Below, one piece after another: positions 13,513 to 21,922 of a stretch of DNA of 64,000 nt. The stretch is taken from contig CAYTTB010000001.1 in the NCBI GenBank assembly GCA_964440565.1, forward strand, positions 29,361 to 93,360, given 5' to 3'. The number at the start of each line of letters is the position of its first letter. The stretch's first letter is position 1. The position numbers were made by a program, and so were the translations under genes. Under the pieces are notes generated by a model. That model saw nothing but the letters and a program-made list of their open reading frames with translations, made no database searches and had not been told where the DNA came from. The DNA comes from an uncultured Thermoanaerobaculia bacterium. Its GTDB lineage: Bacteria > Acidobacteriota > Thermoanaerobaculia > Thermoanaerobaculales > Sulfomarinibacteraceae.

Positions 13513-14709
13513 GTGGGATACGATCTCCCCGTGACGCGGGTGCGCACCGGCCTCGACCGCCTGGTGGCCGATCCGGTCCTCCTGGCCGGGCGGCGGTGGG
13601 CGCTGCTCGCCAACCAGGCCGCGGTGACCGCGGGGCTCGAGCCCGCCCGGGCCGCGCTCGCCGCCGTGGCGGGCCCTCCCGAGGTCCTCTTCGCCCCCGA
13701 GCACGGCCTCGACGGGGTGGCGCAGGACATGGAGGCGGTCGCCGACGAGGCCGACCCCCTCACCGGGGTGCCGGTGCGCTCGCTGTACGGGAGCGACGCG
13801 GGGAGCCTCGCCCCCGAACCCGGCGAGCTCGAGGGGCTCGACGTCCTGGTGGTGGACCTGCCCGACATCGGGAGCCGGTACTACACCTTCGCCGCCACGA
13901 TGGACCTGGCCATGGGCGCGGCGTCCGCGGCCGGGGTGGAGGTGCTGGTGCTCGACCGGCCGAACCCGATCACCGGGCGCCACCGCGAGGGCGGGCTGGT
14001 GCGGGAGGGGTTCGCCTCGTTCGTGGGGCGGGTCCCGGTCCCGGCGCGGCACGGCCTCACCCTGGGCGAGATCGCCCTCCTCCTGCACCGCGAGCGCCAC
14101 TCCGGCCTCGACCTCACCGTCCTCGCCTGCGAGGGGTGGCGGCGGGGGATGTGGTGGGAGGCGACGGGGCTGCCCTGGGTGCCGCCGAGCCCCAACATGC
14201 CGACGCCCGAGACCGCGCTGCTGTACCCGGGGCTGTGCCTGGTGGAGGGGACCGAGCTCTCCGAGGGGCGCGGCACCACCCGGCCGTTCCACCTGGTGGG
14301 GGCGCCGGGGATCGACCCGTTCCGCCTCGTGGAGGCGCTGCGGGACCTCGGTCTGCCCGGTGCCGGGTTCCGGCCCGCGCGGTTCCGGCCGATGTTCGGC
14401 AAGCACGCGGGGCGGGTGTGCGGCGGGGTCGAGCTCTTCGTGCTCCACCGCGAGGCGATCCGGCCGGTGGAGCTGGGCCTGCGGCTGCTGGCCACGATCC
14501 ACGACCTGTTCCCCGAGGCGTTTCGCTGGCGGGAGCGGCCGTACGAGTTCGTCGCCGACGTCCCCGCCATCGACCTCCTCACCGGCTCGGACGAGGCGCG
14601 CCGCCGCATCGACGCGGGCGAGCCGCTGGAGCCGCTGCTCGCGGCCTGGCGCGAGGAGGTCGCCGCCTTCGAGTCCCGCCTCGAGGGGGTGCTGCTCTAC
14701 CGGAAGTGA
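13513..14709 (+). CDS. DUF1343 family protein (exo-beta-N-acetylmuramidase NamZ family)
   Basis: ORF 13513..14709 with a GTG start after GGAGGGTGG. Motifs LFAPEHG, LVVDLPDIGSRYYTF and LDRPNPITG are present. Confidence 0.8.
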   Translation: MGYDLPVTRVRTGLDRLVADPVLLAGRRWALLANQAAVTAGLEPARAALAAVAGPPEVLFAPEHGLDGVAQDMEAVADEADPLTGVPVRSLYGSDAGSLAPEPGELEGLDVLVVDLPDIGSRYYTFAATMDLAMGAASAAGVEVLVLDRPNPITGRHREGGLVREGFASFVGRVPVPARHGLTLGEIALLLHRERHSGLDLTVLACEGWRRGMWWEATGLPWVPPSPNMPTPETALLYPGLCLVEGTELSEGRGTTRPFHLVGAPGIDPFRLVEALRDLGLPGAGFRPARFRPMFGKHAGRVCGGVELFVLHREAIRPVELGLRLLATIHDLFPEAFRWRERPYEFVADVPAIDLLTGSDEARRRIDAGEPLEPLLAAWREEVAAFESRLEGVLLYRK

Positions 14710-14717
14710 GGGCGGGG

Positions 14718-14813
14718 CTCACCGCAACCGGCGCAGCCGCCGGACCTCCTCCACGATGCGGGCGGCCGCCCGGTCCACCTCGGCCCCGGTGGTGAACCGG
14801 CCGACGGCGAGGC
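14718..14813 (-). pseudogene. Orphan 3' fragment (last ~31 codons plus stop) of a cysteine desulfurase gene
   Basis: By hand alignment, 90/96 nt are identical to 15952..16047. It would encode ...LAVGRFTTGAEVDRAAARIVEEVRRLRRLR*, against ...LAVGRFTTEAEVDRAAARIVEEVRRLRRLG* in the intact gene. It lies 9 nt from the DUF1343 stop. Confidence 0.7.
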
Positions 14814-14996
14814 CCGGAGCCCGGCGCACGGGCGATCCGCCGCCGACACGGTGGGGGGACGACGCGGGCCGGGCCCCGCTCCGTGGCAGGTGCAGGGGCC
14901 CTCACGGCGAGACCTCTTCGCGTCCGGGCATGAGCGGCGCGGGTCGAGCGAGGTCGGCGTCGCATCCGCCGGGCCGTCGCCGCCCCCGGAGCGCGC

Positions 14997-15035
14997 GGGG
15001 GTTGACACCGGGTGGGGGGGGTTGACCTGCGGTGG
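14997..15035 (+). repeat. Tandem 20-bp direct repeat containing TTGAC (possible operator or promoter element)
   Basis: GGGGGTTGACACCGGGTGG (14997-15015) is followed by GGGGGTTGACCTGCGGTGG (15017-15035). The pair ends 27 nt upstream of the ATG at 15062. Confidence 0.6.
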
Positions 15036-15061
15036 TGAACACGGCCGGAAGGAGGTCTACC

Positions 15062-15427
15062 ATGAGGCGAGGGATCGGGGTGATGGTCGTCGCCGCGCTG
15101 GCGTTGGCGATGACGCGTGCGGGAGCCTCAAGGGCTCAGGAGCTTCCGCACCTGCGGAACCTTGCGGTCGGGGTCTGGCAGCTGGGTGACGGAGGCGGAT
15201 ACGTGGTCGTCGGCGTCGAGGGCCACCGCTGGCTCCTCGAGCACCTTCGCCTCGAGCGGAGCAGGGCAGCGGCCGCGTGCGAGGACGGAGCGCGTGCGTC
15301 CTGCGCGGGCCAGGTCGCATCGTCCGAGCGCGGACGCGGCCGCGCCGGTCACCGGCTCCGCGGACTGCCGGTAGGCGTCCCCGGTGCGGACCGCGCACCC
15401 GGGGGCGAGGCAAGGAGGCGGCCATGA
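15062..15427 (+). CDS. Hypothetical secreted protein
   Basis: The in-frame ATG at 15062 is preceded by GGAAGGAGG. The signal peptide is MRRGIGVMVVAALALAMTRAGASRAQE. The C-terminal half is Arg/Gly-rich and of low complexity. The stop overlaps the next ATG (ATGA). Confidence 0.4.
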   Translation: MRRGIGVMVVAALALAMTRAGASRAQELPHLRNLAVGVWQLGDGGGYVVVGVEGHRWLLEHLRLERSRAAAACEDGARASCAGQVASSERGRGRAGHRLRGLPVGVPGADRAPGGEARRRP

Positions 15428-15822
15428 GACCGGGGGCACGCTGGTGGGTGGTCGGGCTCGCGGTGGTCGGGCCCGCGCTGATGATGGCAGGTTGCAACGA
15501 CTCCGAGCTGCCCACGGAGCCGGAGGCGCCCACCGCCCAGGTCACGGTGGGGGTGGAGGCGACCTGCGCGGGGGTGGTGCCCGGGGTGGACGTGCTGCTC
15601 GACGGGGAGCCCGTGGGTCACGTCCGTGCGGGGGACACCCTCGCCTTCGTGGTCACGGGCGCGGGCGAGCACGAGCTGCTGCTGCGCGCCGCCGACGGGC
15701 GCGAGTGGAGGGTGACCCTCGGCATGATCGCCGCCGGCGGCGGCGGCGGGAGGCGGTCCGGCTTCTGGGTGAGCCTCGCCTGCACCGCCTCCGGCGCACG
15801 GGTCACCGTGAGCGAGGTCTGA
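15424..15822 (+). CDS. Lipoprotein with PEGA-like beta domain
   Basis: The in-frame ATG at 15424 is preceded by AAGGAGG. The lipobox is LMMAGC. VDVLLDGEPVGHVRAGDTLAFVVTGAGEHELLL resembles a PEGA domain. Confidence 0.65.
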   Translation: MRPGARWWVVGLAVVGPALMMAGCNDSELPTEPEAPTAQVTVGVEATCAGVVPGVDVLLDGEPVGHVRAGDTLAFVVTGAGEHELLLRAADGREWRVTLGMIAAGGGGGRRSGFWVSLACTASGARVTVSEV

Positions 15823-15951
15823 CCGGCGCCCGCCGGCGCGGCGTCGGGCGGCTCGCGGGGCGGGAGGGTCGCCGGCGGTCGCGGCGCCCGCGGACCGGCG
15901 AGGGTACCCAGGCGTCACGTGCCCGGCGGGGACCGCCCGCCGCCAGCCGGC

Positions 15952-16047
15952 CTCACCCGAGCCGGCGCAGCCGCCGGACCTCCTCCACGATGCGGGCGGC
16001 CGCCCGGTCCACCTCGGCCTCGGTGGTGAAGCGGCCCACGGCGAGGC
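15952..16047 (-). repeat. Direct-repeat partner of 14718..14813 (functional 3' end of the cysteine desulfurase gene)
   Basis: See 14718..14813. The two copies are 1234 bp apart in the same orientation. Confidence 0.7.
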
Positions 16048-17110
16048 GCAGCGAGGCGCGGGCGAGGTCCGGGGGGAGCCCCATCGCCCGCAGCACCGGT
16101 GACGGCTCGGGGCTTCCCGCCGAGCAGGCGGCGCCGGAGCTCACCGCGAGGTCGGGGAGCGAGGCGAGCAGGGCCTCGCCGTCGACCCCCTCGAAGGCGA
16201 GGTTGGTGACGCCGGGCAGGCGCGCCCCGGGGTCTCCGGAGACGCTGACGCCGTCGAGCTCGCCGAGGATCGCGCCCTCGAGACGGTCGCGCAGCCGCGC
16301 GAGGCGGGCCGCCTCCTCGGCACGCGCCGCCACCGCCAGCTCCACCGCGACCGCGAAGCCCACGATGCCGGGGACGTTGAGCGTCCCCGGGCGCAGCCCC
16401 CCCTCCTGGCCGCCGCCGTCGAGCAGCGGCTCGGGCCGCACCGCGAGACCGCGCCGGATCCAGAGCGCCCCCACCCCCTTCGGCCCGTACAGCTTGTGCG
16501 CCGACAGCGCCACCGTGTCGGCACCGAGGGCGTCCAGCTCGAGCGGGACCTTCCCCGCCGCCTGGGCGGCGTCGCAGTGCAGCAGCGCCCCGTGCCGGTG
16601 GGCGAGCTCCGCCGCCTCCCGCACCGGCTGCAGCGTGCCGGTCTCGTTGTTGGCGGCCATCAGCGCCGCCAGCACGGCGCCGTCGGCGAGCGCCGCCTCG
16701 AGCTCGTCGAGGCGGACCCGGCCGCGCCGGTCCACCCCCACCACGGTGAGCTCGAACCCCTCGCGGGCGAGGCGCCGCAGCGGCTCCAGCACCGAGGCGT
16801 GCTCGGTGGCCTGGGTCACGATGCGGCGCCCCCGCGCGGCGAGGGCGCGGGCGAGCCCCTTGAGGGCGAGGTTGTTGGCCTCGGTGGCCCCGGAGGTGAA
16901 CACGATCTCGCTGGCGGCGCCGGCGCCGAGCGCGCGGGCGATCCGCCGGCGCGCGTCCTCCACCGCCAGCGCCGCGTCGCGGCCGGGGCGGTGGGTGCGG
17001 CTCGAGGGGTTGGCGAACCGCTCGCCGAAGTACGGCAGCATCGCCTCCACCACCCGCGGGTCGCACGGGGTGGTGGCCGCGTGGTCCAGGTAGATCGGCC
17101 CGTTCTCCAC
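15953..17110 (-). CDS. Cysteine desulfurase (NifS/IscS family, class V aminotransferase)
   Basis: Tail of ORF 15953..17356. The GTG at 17110 gives (M)ENGPIYLDHAATTP. The PLP-Lys motif SAHKLYGPKG and the active-site motif SSGAACS are present. Confidence 0.88.
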   Translation of the reverse strand: MENGPIYLDHAATTPCDPRVVEAMLPYFGERFANPSSRTHRPGRDAALAVEDARRRIARALGAGAASEIVFTSGATEANNLALKGLARALAARGRRIVTQATEHASVLEPLRRLAREGFELTVVGVDRRGRVRLDELEAALADGAVLAALMAANNETGTLQPVREAAELAHRHGALLHCDAAQAAGKVPLELDALGADTVALSAHKLYGPKGVGALWIRRGLAVRPEPLLDGGGQEGGLRPGTLNVPGIVGFAVAVELAVAARAEEAARLARLRDRLEGAILGELDGVSVSGDPGARLPGVTNLAFEGVDGEALLASLPDLAVSSGAACSAGSPEPSPVLRAMGLPPDLARASLRLAVGRFTTEAEVDRAAARIVEEVRRLRRLG

Positions 17111-17144
17111 GTCCGCGATTCTACGGCCTTCCCCGGCCCGTGGG

Positions 17145-19179
17145 GTGACCTCCCGCCGTGGTACAACGGTGCCCGTGCACGGGAGTGCGGACGGCGCCGG
17201 GGCCTCGCCGCGCCGGTGGCCGTGGGTGGTGGGCGTCGTGCTGCTCGCCCTCGCCCTGCGGCTGTGCGGTGTGGGGGCGCTGTCGCCGTGGCTCGACGAG
17301 GTGTTCCAGCTCGAGCGCGTCGCGGCGCCCATCGCCGGGCTCTGGCGGGGGAGCACGGCGTTCCCCGATCACCCACCGGGCTCGGCGCTGCTGATGCGGG
17401 CCCTCGCGACGCTGGGCGCCGGCGAGGCCCAGCTGCGCGTCGCCTCGGTGGCGGCCGCCGTGGCGGCGCTTCCCTTGCTCATGATCTGGGTGGAGGCGCG
17501 TTTCGACCGGCGCGTGGCCGCCCTCGTGGGCGTCCTGGGTGCGGTCTCGCCCTACCACCTGCGCTACTCGCAGGAGCTGCGACCGTACCCGTACCTGCTG
17601 CTCGCCGCCGCGGCGACGCTGGTGCTCGCGGACCGCCTGCTTCGGGGGCGGGGCGGCAGATGGACCGTTCCGGGCCTCGCGGCGGCCTTCGCCGGCGGCC
17701 TCTGGACCCACGACACCTTCCCTGTGGTCGTGGTACCCATCGCGGCCGCGGCGTGTGCGCGCCGAGGGGAGCTGGCACCCGGGTGGCCGCGCCGGCTGGC
17801 GGCGAGCGGGGCGCTCGCCCTCGCGCTCTACCTCCCGCTGCTGCCCCGCCTCGTGCGGCAGGCAGCCGCCGCGTCGTCGCCCACGGCCGAGACGTGGGGT
17901 TGGTGGTTTCTCTCCCGACGCTGGGCTTTCCTGACCGTGGCGGGCCGCGAGGGGATCCCGTCCGGCTGGGGTGCCGCCGCCTTCGCGGCAGCGGCGGCGC
18001 TCGGCGCGGGCGTGGCGGCGGCCCGGTGGCGACGGGGGGGGGCTCGAGGTGCTCACAGGCCTCCTCGCCGGGATCGCCGGGGTGGAGAGCGTCTTCCACT
18101 TCGTCTTCCGGCGCTGGACGGCGGGCCGCTACGACATCGTGGGCTGGCCGTTCCTGGTGATCCTCGTGGCGCTCGGCGTGGACGCCCTCTGGCGCCGGGC
18201 GCGCGCCGCGGGGGCGCTGGCCGCGACGGCACTGGTGACCTCGAGCCTCGTGGGCGTCGTCGCCTACTGGAACGAAGGGCGCCCGCGGTGGGACCGGATG
18301 GCGGAGGCAGTGAGGGCGGTCCGGCGCGCGGGCGAGCCGGTGCTCGCGGAGAGCCTGTTCTGCGAGCGACCGCTCTCCCGCCTGCTCGCCGGCGACGGCG
18401 TGGAGGTGATCCGGCTCGACGGCGACCTCGGGCGCCTGTGGCGGGTGTGGCCGCGGGACCGCTCCGCACTCCTGGTGCGGTGTGGGGATCCCCAGTCGGC
18501 GCCCCTGCGCCGCGTCGCGGCCCGGCTGCCGCGGATCGTGGCGCACGCCCCGCATGGGTGGCTGTACCGGCTGCCGCCGCGCTCGTGGGCGCGGCGTCGC
18601 TCGGATGGCTCGATCGGCGTGGCCGGCGCCTCCCCCGCCGGCGCGTGGCCGGAGCCGAGCCTTTCGCTCCTCCCGGTCCGGGTGGCGTGCCCCGAGGCGT
18701 TCTGCCTCGGCCGGTGGCTCGCCCGACCCCGCCCGAGCCCGGTCGAGGTTCCCGCGAGGCTCGAGTTCGACGGTCCCGAGACGCGACGCGCCCTGCTGGG
18801 GGCCTGGGGCGGGGACGAGCGGACGCGCGACGGCACCACCTTCGCCTGGGCGACCTCGCTGGAGGTCGGCGTGGCGTTCCACATCGCCCGGCCGCGTCCG
18901 CTGCACCTCGCCCTCAGACTGTGGCCGTACGCCGGGACGCTCCCCGGCCAGGCGGTGCGGGGCCTGGTGGGCGGCCACGAGCTGGGATGGGTGCGCCTCG
19001 GAGCAGGAGCGCACGAGCTGGGCGCGCCCATCCCGGCGGGCGCGCTGCGGCCGGGCACCAACCTGCTCGTTCTCCAGTTCGCGCGGGCGGTGGCCCCGGC
19101 CGAGGTGCGTCCGGGATCGCGCGACCGCCGGCCGCTCGCCGCCGCCCTCGACTGGATCGAGATCGCCCCCGCGGAGTGA
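17145..19179 (+). pseudogene. GT-C fold membrane glycosyltransferase (family 39 / ArnT-PMT-like) split by a frameshift at a G9 tract
   Basis: The N-terminal polytopic part reads in the frame of ORF 17145 (LDEVFQLE loop motif, many TM helices) up to about 18033. The sensible sequence continues in the frame of ORF 17971 (LEVLTGLLAGIAGVESVFHFVF... to DRRPLAAALDWIEIAPAE*). Each frame becomes Arg/Gly/Pro junk on the other side of the tract. Confidence 0.7.
18034..18042 (+). repeat. G9 homopolymer at the frameshift point
   Basis: The sequence reads gac ggggggggg ctc. An 8-G version would join the two frames into one ORF of about 677 aa. Confidence 0.9.
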
Positions 19180-19188
19180 GCGCCGGCG
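19124..19188 (+). repeat. 65-bp perfect direct repeat, copy 1 (3' end plus stop of the glycosyltransferase gene)
   Basis: Identical to 20571..20635 at an offset of 1447 bp. Identity extends to 19117 with one mismatch. It includes the TGA at 19177-19179 and 9 nt beyond. Confidence 0.9.
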
Positions 19189-19491
19189 GGCGGGCGGACG
19201 GCCCCGTGGGGAGGTGGCGAAGCGTACCACGTCGTGGCTGGTCGGGGCGGGGATCGACACGGACGGAGGGACCCACGGTCGCGTCACACCTCCGCGACCC
19301 ACCTGTACGCCGCCGTCTCCGAGCTGCTTGTGGTCGAGCGGCGGGACATCTCCACCACGGAGACCATCCCCACCCGGTGGATCGAGCCCGTGACGAGGCC
19401 TTCGAGCGGCCCTGGCGGTCCGCCGGCCCCGGGGGCACGGCGGTCCTCCGGGGCCGCGTTCCTGTTCCGGGTCGCGCCACGGATGGTTCGA

Positions 19492-19520
19492 TGGACACGC
19501 GCGGCACGTGGTGATACACT
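19492..19520 (+). promoter_or_regulatory. Putative sigma70-type promoter of the antitoxin/toxin pair
   Basis: TGGACA (19492-19497), a 17-nt spacer, then TACACT (19515-19520) preceded by TG. The region is locally AT-richer. GGAGGT lies 6 nt before the ATG at 19557. Confidence 0.4.
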
Positions 19521-19556
19521 GTACTTACGAGAGACGCCGATGCCGGAGGTGTCGTC

Positions 19557-19784
19557 ATGGTCAAGCGCCTGACGAGGCACGGGAACAGCCTGGCGCTCGT
19601 CATCGACCGGCCGATACTGGAGCTGCTCAAGATCGACGCCGACACGCCGCTCGAGATCTCCACGGACGGGCGGGTCCTGATCGTCTCTCCGGTCCGTGAC
19701 GCCGAGGACCGGAAGAGGCTCGAGAAGGCCCTGGAGAAGGTGAACCGGAGATACGGTCGTGCCCTCGAGCGCCTCGCACAGTGA
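19557..19784 (+). CDS. AbrB/MazE/SpoVT-fold antitoxin
   Basis: ORF 19557..19784, 75 aa. The motif RHGNSLALVIDRPILELLKIDADTPLEISTDGRVLIVSP is a swapped-hairpin barrel signature. The ORF lies immediately upstream of, and overlaps, doc. Confidence 0.8.
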   Translation: MVKRLTRHGNSLALVIDRPILELLKIDADTPLEISTDGRVLIVSPVRDAEDRKRLEKALEKVNRRYGRALERLAQ

Positions 19785-20172
19785 CCGTGTCCCCCGCTTC
19801 CTGAATCTCGGCGAGGTGCTCTTCATCCACCGCGACCAGATCGAGCGCTACGGCGGCGAGCCCGGTATCCGGGACGTCGGTCTGCTGCAGTCGGCGCTCG
19901 CCATGCCGGCGGCGGGGTTCGGGGGCCGGTTCCTGCACGGCGACCTGTTCGAGATGGCCGCGGCCTACCTCTTCCACATCACCAGGAACCACCCCTTCGT
20001 GGACGGGAACAAGCGGACCGGTGCGGCGTGCGCGCTCGTCTTCCTCGAACTCAACGGGATCGAGATCGATGCCAGCGAGGACGAGCTGGTGGGGATGGTC
20101 ACCGCCGTGGCCGAAGGCAGGGCGGAGAAGGGGGCCATCGCCGATTTCTTCCGCAGGCACGCTCACGGGTGA
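19759..20172 (+). CDS. doc: Doc (death-on-curing) Fic-family toxin
   Basis: ORF 19759..20172 with Fic/Doc motif HPFVDGNKRTG and an N-terminal LNLGEVLFIHRDQIERYGG. The GTG start overlaps the antitoxin by 26 nt, and the exact start is uncertain. Confidence 0.85.
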   Translation: MPSSASHSDRVPRFLNLGEVLFIHRDQIERYGGEPGIRDVGLLQSALAMPAAGFGGRFLHGDLFEMAAAYLFHITRNHPFVDGNKRTGAACALVFLELNGIEIDASEDELVGMVTAVAEGRAEKGAIADFFRRHAHG

Positions 20173-20200
20173 CCCCCCTCGCAATCGCCAGGACTGGTGT

Positions 20201-20220
20201 GCGCGTGTCGTCACACGCGT
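20201..20220 (+). terminator. Hairpin downstream of doc
   Basis: CGCGTGT-cgtc-ACACGCG is a 7-bp stem about 30 nt after the doc stop. It has no U-tract. Confidence 0.3.
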
Positions 20221-20570
20221 CGTCCCGAGAGACATTCTCGAAGCCCTGCAACGCTCCCCGTCCGGGCCCCCGGGTTCGACAGTTTCGGAACCGGAGTGGG
20301 CAGGACTCTCGGGGTGCGATGTCGAGCGACCTGAGGTTTCCATGGCTGGATCGCGCGCCGTCGTGACGATCAGGCCTCACGGCGTCGCCTCGCGACGGGG
20401 ACGGTGCGCACGGGTGTCACACCGGTCTCTCCCGAGCAGCGGCGCCTCTTCGAGGCGCTCGCCGCCGACCGACCCACCCGCAAGCGGCAGGAGGCTGCGG
20501 CGTGGGCGGGAGCTCCCGGAAGCCGATCCAGACGTGGGTGCGAGAGTGTCGAACTCGGGTAGTTCGCGCC

Positions 20571-20635
20571 ACCGCCGGCCGCTCGCCGCCGCCCTCGACT
20601 GGATCGAGATCGCCCCCGCGGAGTGAGCGCCGGCG
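20571..20635 (+). repeat. 65-bp perfect direct repeat, copy 2 (orphan glycosyltransferase 3' end)
   Basis: Identical to 19124..19188. It would encode ...RRPLAAALDWIEIAPAE* but has no upstream gene body. Confidence 0.9.
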
Positions 20636-20648
20636 CCGGGTGCGGGGA

Positions 20649-20698
20649 CCACGGCGGGGCTCCCCGCGGGGAGGTGGGATCGCGGGGTCCCGCCGTGG
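20649..20698. terminator. Compound GC-rich hairpin between the orphan repeat and the ftsZ stop
   Basis: The outer stem is CCACGGCGGG/CCCGCCGTGG (10 bp) and the inner stem is CCCCGCG/CGCGGGG (7 bp). It lies 25 nt downstream of the ftsZ stop on the minus strand. Confidence 0.4.
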
Positions 20699-20722
20699 CC
20701 CGGAGGCGGTCCCGGTCGCCGC

Positions 20723-21922
20723 TCAGTCGAGCTGGTTCCTCAGGATCGCCGGGACCTCGTACTCCTCCTTGGGCGCTCCGGTGCCGTGGATCCCGTACCA
20801 CGGGTCGCTGGGCTCCAGGAACGGGCTGCGCGGCCGCGCGCCCTCCTCGGCCGGCCGCTCGGCCTCGGCCTCGGCGGTGCGCCGCTCGGTCGCCTCGCCA
20901 CCGAAGCCGGTGGCGATCACCGTCACCCGGAACTCGCCCTCGAGGTCGGGGTCCACCACCGCGCCGAACAGGACGATGGCGTCGCGGTCGGCGCTCTCGG
21001 TGATGATCTCCGCCGCCTCGTTGACCTCGGTGAGCGTCATGTCGGCGCCGCCGGTGAGGTTGATGAGGATCCCGCGCGCGCCGGCGATGGACGTCTCCTC
21101 CAGCAGCGGCGAGGCGATCGCCTGCTGGGCCGCCTCCACCGCCCGGTGCTCGCCGGAGGCCGCGCCCACCCCCATGATGGCGTGGCCCATGTCCTTCATC
21201 ACCGTGCGCACGTCGGCGAAGTCGCGGTTGATCAGCCCGGGCTTGGTGATGATGTCGGCGATCCCCTGCACCGCCTGACGGAGCACGTCGTCGGCGATGC
21301 GGAGCGCGTCGGTGAACGACGTGGAGCGGTCCACGAACTTGAGCAGCCGCTCGTTGGGGATCGTGATCAGGGTGTCCACGTGCGCCTCGAGCTGGGCGAT
21401 CCCCTCCTCCGCCACCCGGCGGCGGCGCGTCCCCTCGAAGGGGAACGGCTTGGTCACCACCGCCACCGTGAGGGCGTCGGCCTGCGAGGCGATCTGGGCG
21501 ATCACCGGCGCCGCCCCGGTGCCGGTGCCCCCGCCCATGCCGCAGGTGACGAACACCATGTCGGCGCCCGTGACCAGCTCGTGCAGCCGGTCGGTGTCCT
21601 CCACCGCCGCCCGGCGGCCGATGTCGGGGTCGGCGCCGGCGCCGAGGCCTCGCGTCACCTCCGGGCCCAGCTGCACCTTCACCGGCGCCGTGCACTGCTC
21701 GAGCGCCTGGGCGTCGGTGTTGACGGCGATGAACTCCACCCCCGCCACCCCCGCCGCCATCATCCGGTTGATCGAGTTGCAGCCGCCGCCCCCCACGCCG
21801 ATCACCTTGATCACCGCCGGCGAGGACGCCTCCTCCAGCTGGATCCGCGGGCCCTCGCCAGGCGCCGGGGAGCCCCGCTCCCCCCGTGGGTCGTCGTGCC
21901 TCGAGTCGAGCCTGATGTTCAC
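20723..21922 (-). CDS. ftsZ: Cell division protein FtsZ
   Basis: Tail of ORF 20723..23044. The GTG at 21922 follows GGGAGGTGG and overlaps the ftsA stop (GTGA). Motifs [17 protein letters not shown] and [12 protein letters not shown] are present. Length 399 aa. Confidence 0.92.

Follow-up and report, generated by a model that had tools for sequence, protein, structure and literature searches.

Among the features of the 64,000-nucleotide stretch of DNA analysed here (the window) is a predicted antitoxin–doc gene pair at the very end of the dcw cluster, flanked on either side by a copy of the 3' end of a glycosyltransferase (GT) gene. This arrangement raises the question of how so small an islet came to be bounded by so long a duplication, and whether the toxin–antitoxin module inserted alone or arrived as part of something else.

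The repeat and its host flanks

The host genes and the two repeat copies are arranged as follows:

17145-19179, plus strand: GT-C type glycosyltransferase gene with a PMT_2 N-terminal domain (Pfam PMT_2, E 9.5e-8, on 17145-18041)
19117-19188, plus strand: direct repeat copy 1, 72 bp, continuous with the body of the GT gene; no difference from copy 2 over 19124-19188
20564-20635, plus strand: direct repeat copy 2, an orphan GT 3' end; one mismatch to copy 1 (20570); T or C at 20624, depending on the assembly
20636-20722, minus strand: ftsZ terminator hairpin, native host DNA (fold -66.3 kcal/mol, z -3.67)
20723-21922, minus strand: ftsZ, last gene of the dcw cluster (Pfam Tubulin and FtsZ_C; gene order)

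The annotated repeat was reproduced: 19124-19188 recurs exactly at 20571-20635 (65/65, offset 1447), identity reaches 71/72 when the copies are extended to 19117 and 20564, and none of 100 dinucleotide-preserving shuffles contained a repeat match at three or fewer mismatches. Copy 1 comprises GT codons from 19123, the stop codon TGA (19177-19179) and 9 nt further. Upstream of the distal copy we found no similarity to the GT, in line with the earlier statement that this copy lacks a gene body. The insert between the copies is 1,375 bp long and has a GC content of 0.65-0.75 versus 0.77-0.80 in the flanks. It is compositionally foreign, and the earlier picture of a toxin–antitoxin insert at the end of the dcw cluster, with a duplicated GT 3' end on both sides, is upheld.

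Repeats shorter than a sequencing read can in principle be mis-joined during assembly, a concern that the initial annotation had raised itself, and nothing else was found in favour of such an error. The whole locus, including both copies with their distinct flanks, was assembled not only in the window but also in two JGI metagenome contigs from two samples (L001 and L002; 99.97-99.99% identity). Two Logan contigs, L009 and L010, reach copy 2 only and end at 20606 and 20594, respectively, in each case exactly 30 nt left of the first base that tells copy 2 from copy 1; the Logan graph is built with k=31, and its contigs break in this way at a true repeat, as predicted for a real repeat of 65 bp. 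In addition, three assemblies among L001, L002, L009 and L010 read CGA in place of TGA at 20624 of the orphan copy, which is therefore polymorphic, the 65/65 identity being specific to the window and L009. The two copies can also be told apart by a SNP. We conclude that the repeat is not an assembly artefact, an origin that can be regarded as vanishingly improbable.

On the left, the GT frame shifts at a run of nine G residues (18034-18042), with the C-terminal part lying in the frame of 17971-19179, and in a distant homologue (L003) the matches to the N-terminal and to the C-terminal part are separated by about 500 bp; the GT homologues found were 29-37% identical. On the right, the hairpin 3' of ftsZ is kept in the nearest available relatives (L011-L016), which confirms that the orphan copy is followed by the native hairpin and ftsZ. 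Judged by this conservation, what lies right of copy 2 (20636-20722) belongs to the host and is ancestral. The GT itself had been taken for the native neighbour of ftsZ, but this arrangement is not ancestral: in the closest available relatives (FtsZ 71-72% identical) ftsZ is followed directly by a cysteine-desulfurase gene and the GT is absent.

Phage and insertion sequence remnants between the repeats

The following features were assigned to the insert:

19189-19208, no strand assigned: junction stretch of ambiguous origin, either recombinase-derived (two 3-nt gaps) or copied, with divergence, from the left arm of the ftsZ terminator
19209-19415, plus strand: degraded 3' end of a Xer-like phage tyrosine recombinase gene, residues ~240-312 of 312 (alignment to L017; tblastn; GC3)
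19440-19457, plus strand: terminator-like hairpin after the recombinase stub, within 56 nt common to phage contigs without the toxin–antitoxin pair
19473-20190, plus strand: self-contained toxin–antitoxin cassette (moron) with promoter-like site, antitoxin, doc and hairpin; equivalent to L017 1844-2562
19557-19784, plus strand: antitoxin, 75 aa, AbrB/MazE-like 'doc partner' (Pfam MazE_antitoxin, E 0.0024; TIGR02609 doc_partner, E 1.7e-5)
19759-20172, plus strand: Doc (Fic-fold) toxin ORF (Pfam Fic, E 7.7e-19; HPFVDGNKR intact)
20191-20268, plus strand: phage intergenic DNA past the cassette slot, 70-82% identical to L025 11003-11078 and L017 2563-2715
20269-20559, plus strand: internally deleted IS1634-family insertion sequence (IS), 291 bp, with transposase tail and both inverted repeats
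20269-20288: left inverted repeat (IRL), matching the reverse complement of the right inverted repeat (IRR) at 16/20
20350-20502: last 51 transposase codons; stop lost, TGG at 20503
20540-20559: IRR, tip TGTCGAACTCGGG identical to that of L046
20560-20563, no strand assigned: filler TAGT joining the IS right tip to copy 2, in place of the GGGA of copy 1

Judged from its sequence, the islet is the debris of two mobile elements and not a self-inserting toxin–antitoxin unit: the insert pieces together a phage fragment and the remnant of an IS1634-family element, which overturns the idea that the module had moved in by itself. The phage part is represented by 19209-20226, which aligns with positions 1566-2598 of contig L017 at 85.7% identity over 1034 bp, and in all phage relatives the match begins at 19209-19212. 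In L017, a 312-aa tyrosine recombinase is encoded directly 5' of the same antitoxin–doc pair. The islet retains about the last 70 codons of this gene, from which tblastn recovers RHTSATHLYAA...DISTTE, and GC3 periodicity is seen at 19260-19470; the gene is frameshifted, has lost ALGH to a 12-bp deletion and one nucleotide at the catalytic Tyr codon, and its stop codon now reads TGG. A search for a decayed integrase in the stretches flanking the gene pair had been suggested, and this stub is what it yielded; together with the transposase tail described below, it means that the two stretches earlier described as lacking a supportable ORF both hold decayed mobile-element genes. In metagenome and IMG/VR viral contigs the recombinase gene lies between terminase/portal/Mu_F and primase/helicase genes, and phage genes stand on both sides of the Xer-like gene in all viral contigs as well as in the chromosomal prophages L042 (Desulfosarcina widdelii) and L043 (on a 9.1-Mb contig), the former of which also carries a large serine recombinase. 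The 20 nt between copy 1 and the stub are harder to assign: 19189-19208 showed marginal similarity to the recombinase (p 0.07), and when 19209-19217 are included, the 16-mer CCCCGTGGGGAGGTGG matches the ftsZ terminator at 15/16 positions (p 0.0035).

Within the phage DNA the toxin–antitoxin cassette behaves as a 719-bp indel in a spacer, a segment that phage contig L017 has and phage contig L025 lacks, and the same cassette occurs at 84-89% identity in the unrelated contexts L018-L021. The antitoxin gene lies directly 5' of doc and is preceded by a promoter-like site (TGGACA-17-TACACT, 19492-19520; one site in a promoter scan against 0.1 expected), a layout shared by four homologous cassettes; the region 3' of doc folded no better than its shuffles. 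The presence of both genes, as annotated, is thus borne out by the Fic and DOC_P1 profiles and by the homologous cassettes. With respect to the antitoxin, the gene itself stands, since its length and position agree with the four homologous cassettes, whereas the AbrB family label rests on profile matches that both fall under their cut-offs. Doc scores well above threshold (TIGR01550 DOC_P1, 71 bits versus a cut-off of 38.65; PHROG 577, E 6.4e-34), but compared with the four homologues it has suffered two 1-nt deletions and an ATG>GTG change, so that the canonical start is now GTG at 19787 followed by a frameshift. The sole open Doc frame runs from GTG 19759, inside the antitoxin gene and preceded by GGAG. 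Given this damage to the predicted start region, an active toxin cannot be assumed.

Phage homology ends after a 78-nt intergenic piece at 20268, and the left tip of the IS begins at the very next base (20268/20269); the other inner junction of the phage fragment is the end of copy 1 (19188/19189). Searching 1.8 billion proteins with phmmer, we matched the C-terminal ends of P0363 and P0364 (E 1e-4, 55-57% identity), the latter an IS1634 family transposase (NF033559, 190 bits versus a cut-off of 100), and with tblastn the transposase tail gave 27/51 identities to P0364 and 28/49 to P0363, end-to-end with the C-termini. The 75-aa transposase fragment alone had no NCBIfam match, and the catalytic DDE region is gone. 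The inverted repeats bracket this tail: IRL (CCCGGGTTCGACAGTT) agrees at 14/16 positions with that of the annotated IS1634-family copy L046. For the 14-mer of the repeats, the exact site and the only site with two mismatches in the 64 kb are at 20269 and 20559, in inverted orientation, and the pair matches the inverted repeats of annotated IS1634-family copies, the ends of which are confirmed by target duplications of 4-6 bp. Between the stop-equivalent position and the IS end lie 54 nt, compared with 64-80 nt in the reference copies. Around 20269-20559 no 5-6 bp duplication was found (left flank GGGCC, right flank TAGTT); the right tip lies 4 nt from copy 2, and the 72-bp repeat encloses the block 19189-20563, not the IS alone.

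An integron gene cassette was considered and rejected, as the recombinase scored far under the integron-integrase cut-offs (96 bits versus 265 and 56 versus 435); a search for Rfam or other structured elements found none. A second islet, 4 kb away, has the same architecture with a 102-bp repeat and is IS-free.

Origin of the duplication

Long direct repeats of variable length, between 8 and 514 bp, have been documented for IS1634 and IS1549 (PMC2266710), and this record is what leads us to read the 72-bp repeat as such a duplication. We favour, as plausible, the explanation that it is a long IS1634/IS1549-type target duplication made when an IS, possibly dragging a phage fragment, landed in the GT/ftsZ junction. 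The islet resembles those insertions in that an IS of the same family, as judged by transposase C-terminus and inverted repeats, adjoins the repeat, and in that 72 bp (perhaps ~118 bp) falls within the documented range. The missing 5-6 bp duplication indicates that the IS ends abut unrelated DNA, which would be expected were 19189-20559 as a whole enclosed in one duplication. According to this explanation, an IS would have inserted into the convergent GT/ftsZ junction. The duplication, perhaps ~76-118 bp long at first and reaching into the loop of the ftsZ terminator, would have preserved the GT to its left and the terminator to its right. The phage fragment could have come along by two routes. 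The IS may have been a neighbour of the toxin–antitoxin pair while still in a phage; its right end would then have transposed correctly, and an illegitimate far junction would have formed within the recombinase gene, as in one-ended or surrogate-end transposition. Alternatively, a break at the IS left tip may have been repaired with capture of phage DNA. Later decay would have removed the transposase, broken the recombinase stub and damaged the Doc start. The toxin–antitoxin pair would then be passive cargo, to the persistence of which addiction may contribute. As a whole, the islet is an ordinary mobile-DNA scar, and its main interest is the origin of so long a duplication.

Several observations weigh against an IS-made duplication. 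Only one IS tip adjoins a repeat, 1.08 kb of phage DNA separating the left tip from copy 1, and at least one extra event, or a non-canonical one-ended event, is therefore needed. The islet IS is an internally deleted derivative of 291 bp in an Acidobacteriota-like MAG and not in Mycoplasma or Mycobacterium; its closest characterised relatives, L044 and L046, make duplications of 4-6 bp, long ones being documented only in two distant family members. Simple fill-in would not predict the TAGT and the mismatch at +7 that stand between the IS tip and perfect identity, no IS1634 element was found in any related phage locus, and the recombinase stub beside copy 1 would also fit a decayed integrated element. 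Finally, the IS-free islet nearby suggests a more general cause.

A more specific form of the IS explanation, which we hold to be unlikely, is that the locus is a fossil of one-ended or surrogate-end transposition, in which the transposase attached the right tip to the target, and the second junction arose by illegitimate joining of phage DNA, ~1.4 kb distant in the donor, to a target site 72-118 bp downstream. If this were true, one-ended joining would yield both the long duplication and the movement of a phage toxin–antitoxin moron; uncoordinated end joining would model in concrete terms how the long, variable repeats of IS1634/IS1549, hitherto without explanation, come about, and the IS-free islet might have arisen earlier in the same way.

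Site-specific integration offers a different account, in which the repeats are attL and attR of a phage or integrative element with a copy of the GT 3' end in its attP; a later deletion from just past attL into the recombinase gene would have removed nearly the whole prophage, and the IS would then have landed in, or rearranged, the attR arm. The insert is indeed phage-derived, with a tyrosine recombinase stub within 0-20 nt of copy 1, and a duplicated gene 3' end with the gene kept intact is the classic outcome of integrase action, as in the 163-bp pseudo-icd generated by e14 (PMC6379469). Like e14 and phage 21 at the icd 3' end in E. coli, the islet is foreign DNA between two copies of a gene 3' end, with the gene intact, an orphan 3' fragment and recombinase sequence beside one copy. 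The orientation likewise agrees with attL as gene body–core and attR as core–native downstream DNA, the terminator-like 16-mer after copy 1 is what a target-mimicking attP would give, and between the copies of the second islet there are three synonymous and two non-synonymous codon differences, suggestive of import of one copy. Direct repeats that include the target gene 3' end are thus present (71/72), but element DNA does not lie against both cores: copy 2 is adjoined by an IS1634-family tip plus 4 nt, without phage DNA or a 5-6 bp duplication around the IS, a coincidence that integration leaves unexplained. Unlike in e14 and phage 21, moreover, the recombinase is represented by just the broken 3' stub, and the related prophages are not split next to the gene, which is internal in L042, L043 and all viral contigs. 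The GT 3'-end 20-mer is absent from the viral contigs. Taken together, we consider an att origin unlikely; of the earlier description of a duplication-flanked insert, the flanking GT 3'-end duplication holds, and the IS tip at the distal repeat points to an IS-made duplication at least as much as to an integrase att site. CIMEs are att-flanked islands that have lost their integrase and can be mobilised in cis. The islet is similar in being a small island without a working recombinase and with direct repeats of a gene 3' end on both sides; it differs in that one border is an IS tip; repeats acting as att sites and a cognate integrase in the genome would both be hypothetical.

Illegitimate, microhomology-mediated insertion without transposase or integrase chemistry, either by template switching at a stalled fork or by end-joining capture, appears quite improbable. 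Here, replication would have switched from the chromosome to a phage-plus-IS template near the terminator and returned 72-118 bp upstream, so that the interval was duplicated. At the left junction, the terminator loop and the recombinase gene may share 8-9 nt of microhomology, GG(G/C)AGGTGG; this, the arbitrary position of the left breakpoint within a gene, the 4-nt filler at the right junction and the strong hairpin as a plausible fork-stall site would all suit such a process. The right junction, however, lies exactly at the tip of the IS inverted repeat, which a random switch would not pick unless the donor had been cut by transposase, in which case the model merges with an IS-made duplication; in addition, the sequence that follows copy 1 does not duplicate the native one exactly. 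Very improbable is a Campbell-type integration, by single crossover within the 72-bp identity, of a small circle on which the GT 3' end was already combined with phage fragment and IS remnant: the structure is formally the product of such a crossover, and recombination between the repeats would release the same 1,447-bp circle, but the joining of GT end, IS tip and recombinase stub is merely shifted to an unseen donor, 72 bp is short for homologous recombination, and no circle or donor was found.

Relation to other phage-borne toxin–antitoxin pairs

The gene pair resembles Phd–Doc of phage P1 in that a Doc with the Fic fold and the HxFx(D/N)GNKR motif, scoring over the TIGR01550 DOC_P1 cut-off, is encoded after a small antitoxin gene on a phage genome. 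It departs from P1 in that the antitoxin is an AbrB/MazE-like 'doc_partner' and not Phd/YefM, the islet pair is chromosomal and its function is predicted from sequence. The islet can also be compared with 'grounded' or cryptic prophage remnants, such as those carrying relBE in Qin and rnlAB in CP4-57, as it too is a stub cut down to a toxin–antitoxin pair and neighbouring phage gene fragments; it is distinguished from them by the small size of the remnant (only ~1.1 kb), its fusion to an IS remnant and the damaged toxin start. An independent second example of the same phage stub was found in L019.

The direct repeat and its setting beside ftsZ

Recomparison of the sequence reproduced the 65-bp perfect direct repeat of the initial annotation together with its extension to 71/72. 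Positions 19124-19188 and 20571-20635 are identical at 65 of 65 nucleotides with an offset of 1447, identity is 71/72 when the repeat is extended from 19117 and 20564, respectively, and none of 100 shuffles yielded a match. The first copy forms the 3' end of a glycosyltransferase gene of the GT-C type (PMT_2; stop codon 19177-19179) and, as had been described for the distal copy, nothing resembling a glycosyltransferase gene body lies upstream of the second. GC content is 0.65-0.75 between the copies versus 0.77-0.80 outside. The region is arranged as follows.

Order of features across the islet
19117-19188: copy 1, 3' end of the glycosyltransferase gene
next 0-20 nt: ambiguous
19209-19415: stub of a phage recombinase gene
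19473-20190: toxin–antitoxin moron (promoter–antitoxin–doc cassette)
20191-20268: phage spacer, 78 nt
20269-20559: IS1634-family remnant from left tip to right tip, 291 bp
next 4 nt: TAGT
20564-20635: copy 2, orphan
next 87 nt: native terminator, up to the ftsZ stop

An assembly artefact, which had been named as the finding that would overturn the repeat, is excluded. Two JGI contigs from two samples carry the islet structure at 99.97-99.99% identity, and two Logan contigs stop at 20606 and 20594, in each sample exactly 30 nt left of the first base that distinguishes copy 2. We take contig breaks at that spot to be the behaviour of a k=31 graph at a true repeat. The former stop codon of the orphan copy, at 20624, reads CGA instead of TGA in three of the four other assemblies (TGA in the window and SRR9849954; CGA in SRR9849955 and both JGI assemblies), which suggests that the orphan copy is drifting; the T/C polymorphism itself reflects either neutral drift or gene conversion between the repeats.

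The window belongs to an isolated high-GC lineage, in which the next best FtsZ match shares 71-72% identity, and the few lower-ranking matches that are named (~68-70% identical) come from Acidobacteria/Thermoanaerobaculales MAGs. In relatives, ftsZ is followed after 158 nt by a cysteine-desulfurase gene, the 3' end of which overlaps that of namZ. The 87 nt from copy 2 to the ftsZ stop are ancestral, and the terminator hairpin within them, including CCCACCTCCCCGCGGGG, is conserved downstream of ftsZ in relatives and folds strongly on the ftsZ strand (z -3.67). The hairpin and ftsZ beyond the distal copy are thus native DNA, as had been proposed, but the glycosyltransferase is no neighbour of ftsZ there: the nearest available relatives (L011-L016) have no such gene separating ftsZ from the cysteine-desulfurase gene, and the glycosyltransferase is thus lineage-specific at this position. 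Scans of genome and metagenome collections with the glycosyltransferase returned only homologues of 29-37% identity, none of them beside ftsZ. Rfam gave no match at E<=1 on 14000-21500, and no tRNA lies near the islet.

Phage recombinase stub and toxin–antitoxin cassette

The two stretches in which no open reading frame had been supported in fact contain gene remnants, the left one of a recombinase and the right one of an IS1634-family transposase. Pfam and NCBIfam searches on ORF fragments of both gave no match, and it took a DNA-level comparison with the contig of a homologue and an exhaustive phmmer search to reveal the remnants. Window 19209-20226 aligns with positions 1566-2598 of L017, a phage contig carrying a recombinase and an antitoxin–doc pair, at 85.7% over 1034 bp, which identifies 19209-19415 as the last ~70 codons of a 312-aa recombinase gene. 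The decayed integrase that had been suggested as a search target is therefore present, as a stub that has suffered a frameshift and a 12-bp deletion and has lost its catalytic Tyr codon and its stop. The interval is also flagged by GC3 periodicity, and since all relatives start matching at 19209-19212 the truncation is sharp. The recombinase is Xer-like and phage-borne, lying between terminase/portal/Mu_F and primase/helicase genes on metagenome contigs, eleven IMG/VR contigs and two chromosomal prophages. No other copy occurs within the 64-kb window, GenBank phages hold only relatives below 40% identity, and no plasmid matched the islet at DNA level. An apparent tblastx match between the minus strand of 20348-20537 and the recombinase gene was off-frame and failed nucleotide and protein alignment against shuffles.

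The phage family concerned is widespread (phage and prophage loci L022, L025-L029 and L031-L043) and has an internal module in which the 312-aa Xer-like recombinase is accompanied by an 84-aa gene and by a stand-alone gene of 132 aa that resembles an integrase N-terminus. Its recombinases are 97-100% identical in many metagenomes, and homologues of 73-81% identity lie on megabase-scale contigs, in three cases two per contig. Variable cargo follows the module, namely the toxin–antitoxin pair in L017 and, a few kb downstream, AbiE in L022. Integration, dimer resolution and cargo exchange are candidate roles of the recombinase; the prophages are not split beside its gene.

The annotated AbrB-antitoxin/Doc-toxin pair holds for the toxin family: 19759-20172 encodes a Doc toxin (Pfam Fic 7.7e-19, TIGR01550 above cut-off, PHROG 577) with an intact HPFVDGNKR motif. 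Its 75-aa AbrB/MazE-like 'doc partner' (19557-19784) reaches only sub-threshold profile scores. The promoter-like region placed ahead of the antitoxin contains the sole sigma-70-like site of the region (TGGACA-17-TACACT, 19492-19520). Relative to four homologous cassettes, the window lacks two single nucleotides and has GTG in place of ATG at the doc start, so that the canonical start now meets a stop and the only open doc frame begins at GTG 19759, within the antitoxin gene; with its start damaged in this way, activity of the predicted toxin is uncertain.

The closest Doc homologue (91% at the amino acid level) is encoded on L017 directly downstream of the 312-aa tyrosine recombinase, and the spacer that follows the recombinase carries the pair as a 719-bp indel, which L017 has and phage contig L025 lacks. 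The ~0.7-kb cassette is shared at 84-89% DNA identity between contigs of GC 0.48-0.77 with unrelated neighbouring genes, its left boundary being common to the homologues at the -35 region, and it behaves as a discrete, recently spread unit. An integron-cassette reading was tried and rejected, and we found no convincing flanking repeats around the homologous cassettes or stubs in L017-L020.

Positions of the cassette in the window and in homologous contigs
window: 19473-20190
L017: 1844-2562
L018: homologous contig
L019: 5696-6390
L020/L021: 5667-6425

An independent second stub of the same phage region occurs in an unrelated host, at 5666-6611 of L019 (ENA contig JOHN19-1...scaffold_388, 52.8 kb). 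It retains the final 29 nt of the recombinase gene, the cassette and ~225 nt of phage spacer; its neighbours are rpe on one side and a PhdYeFM/PIN pair on the other, and no repeat flanks it. Twice, then, the cassette has persisted as what is left of this phage region, which fits the view that toxin–antitoxin modules outlive the elements that carried them.

IS1634-family remnant and origin of the duplication

Exhaustive phmmer with the weakly periodic frame 20335-20559 matched two proteins at their very C-terminal ends (E 1e-4, 55-57% identity), one of which is an IS1634-family transposase by NCBIfam (190 bits). The tail in the window, 20350-20502, spans 51 codons to the protein's last residue. 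Annotated IS1634-family plasmid copies have inverted repeats (G)CCSRRNTTCGACAG, with ends confirmed by 4-6 bp target duplications. One of these reference copies, ISAzo6 (L044; Aromatoleum aromaticum EbN1 plasmid 2, NC_006824.1 126514-129984), lies between two CDSs both annotated as tyrosine-type recombinase/integrase, and so appears to interrupt such a gene. In the window, the left tip is CCCGGGTTCGACAGTT at 20269 and the right end is the reverse complement of CCCGAGTTCGACAC at 20546-20559; across the 64 kb, the left is the only site with 2 mismatches to the 14-mer and the right the only exact one. The paired inverted repeats match at 16/20 positions and enclose the transposase tail. The left tip begins where phage homology ends, and the right tip lies 4 nt (TAGT) before copy 2. 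Inverted repeats are thus present and the transposase is partly covered, by its C-terminal tail, but the canonical short flanking duplication is absent. Neither the window nor the related phage loci contain another IS1634 copy.

IS1634 and IS1549 are the two insertion sequences reported with long, variable direct repeats of 8-514 bp, for which no mechanism was proposed (PMC2266710). We favour the reading that the 72-bp repeat is a target duplication made by the IS, since an IS1634-family tip against one copy is hard to call coincidence, and give it about an even chance. Phage DNA and IS could have moved together, with a correct right end and an illegitimate far junction within the recombinase gene, or phage DNA could have been picked up where the DNA had broken at the left tip of the IS. 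The 16-mer CCCCGTGGGGAGGTGG, which follows copy 1, agrees with the loop region of the terminator at 15/16 positions and overlaps the first bases of recombinase homology, which suggests that the duplication may originally have extended as far as the hairpin loop (~118 bp) and that microhomology was used at the left junction. Alternatively, these bases are indel-ridden recombinase sequence (p 0.07), and 19189-19217 is accordingly either a diverged terminator arm or such sequence.

That the repeats are att sites, as in the e14/icd pattern (PMC6379469), would account for the stub of the recombinase, for the preservation of the gene end and for the way the copies are oriented. Yet it leaves the IS tip at the repeat border unexplained, related prophages are not split beside the recombinase gene, and a search for an attP-like match gave none, the 20-mer from the glycosyltransferase 3' end being absent from viral contigs. 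An att-flanked prophage also calls for element DNA at both cores, where this reading fails, and we consider it unlikely. Slightly less probable still is pure template switching or end-joining, which does not explain a junction exactly at the IS tip. Campbell-type integration of a pre-formed circle merely shifts the problem to an unseen donor and is very improbable.

How the repeat arose and in what order the events took place are inferred, with IS-made target duplication as the preferred account. A toxin–antitoxin module in a duplication-flanked insert had been proposed: a Doc pair does lie between the copies, but the insert is a decayed mobile-element pile-up. All its components are of known kinds (Doc-family pair, phage moron, grounded phage fragment, IS1634-family remnant), and the long duplication is its only potentially instructive aspect. 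The locus may be a further case, from an uncultured Acidobacteriota-like lineage of high GC, of the long target duplications by IS1634-family elements, of which very few have been reported. An islet may look orderly, with perfect repeats around a toxin–antitoxin pair, and still be such a pile-up; seemingly non-coding DNA next to one should be screened for gene tails and IS tips before any mechanism is put forward.

Further insertions at the end of the dcw cluster

The glycosyltransferase gene (17111-19179; absent in L011-L016) contains a nine-G run at 18034-18042, where the reading frame shifts between the N-terminal PMT_2 portion and the C-terminal portion. The two JGI contigs have the same run, which may mark a pseudogene or a phase-variable gene, or may be a homopolymer error that the assemblies share.

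A second islet of the same architecture lies 4 kb upstream (14814-15945), between repeats at 14712-14813 and 15946-16047 (102 bp, 92% identical) that represent the 3' end of the cysteine-desulfurase (Aminotran_5) gene. In this islet we found no IS or integrase remnant; its 1.1 kb hold two small secreted/lipoprotein-like genes (121 aa; 132 aa, BiPBP_C-like) at a host-like GC of 0.77. The repeat copies differ by 3 synonymous and 2 non-synonymous codons. Since the glycosyltransferase is absent from the nearest relatives, three lineage-specific insertions (glycosyltransferase, toxin–antitoxin islet and two-gene islet) are packed into 6 kb at the end of the dcw cluster, the 3' boundary of which tolerates insertions if a duplication preserves the ftsZ terminator and the end of the neighbouring gene. 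At the second islet the orphan copy occupies the ancestral position beside the namZ stop, where in relatives both gene ends overlap with no insert.
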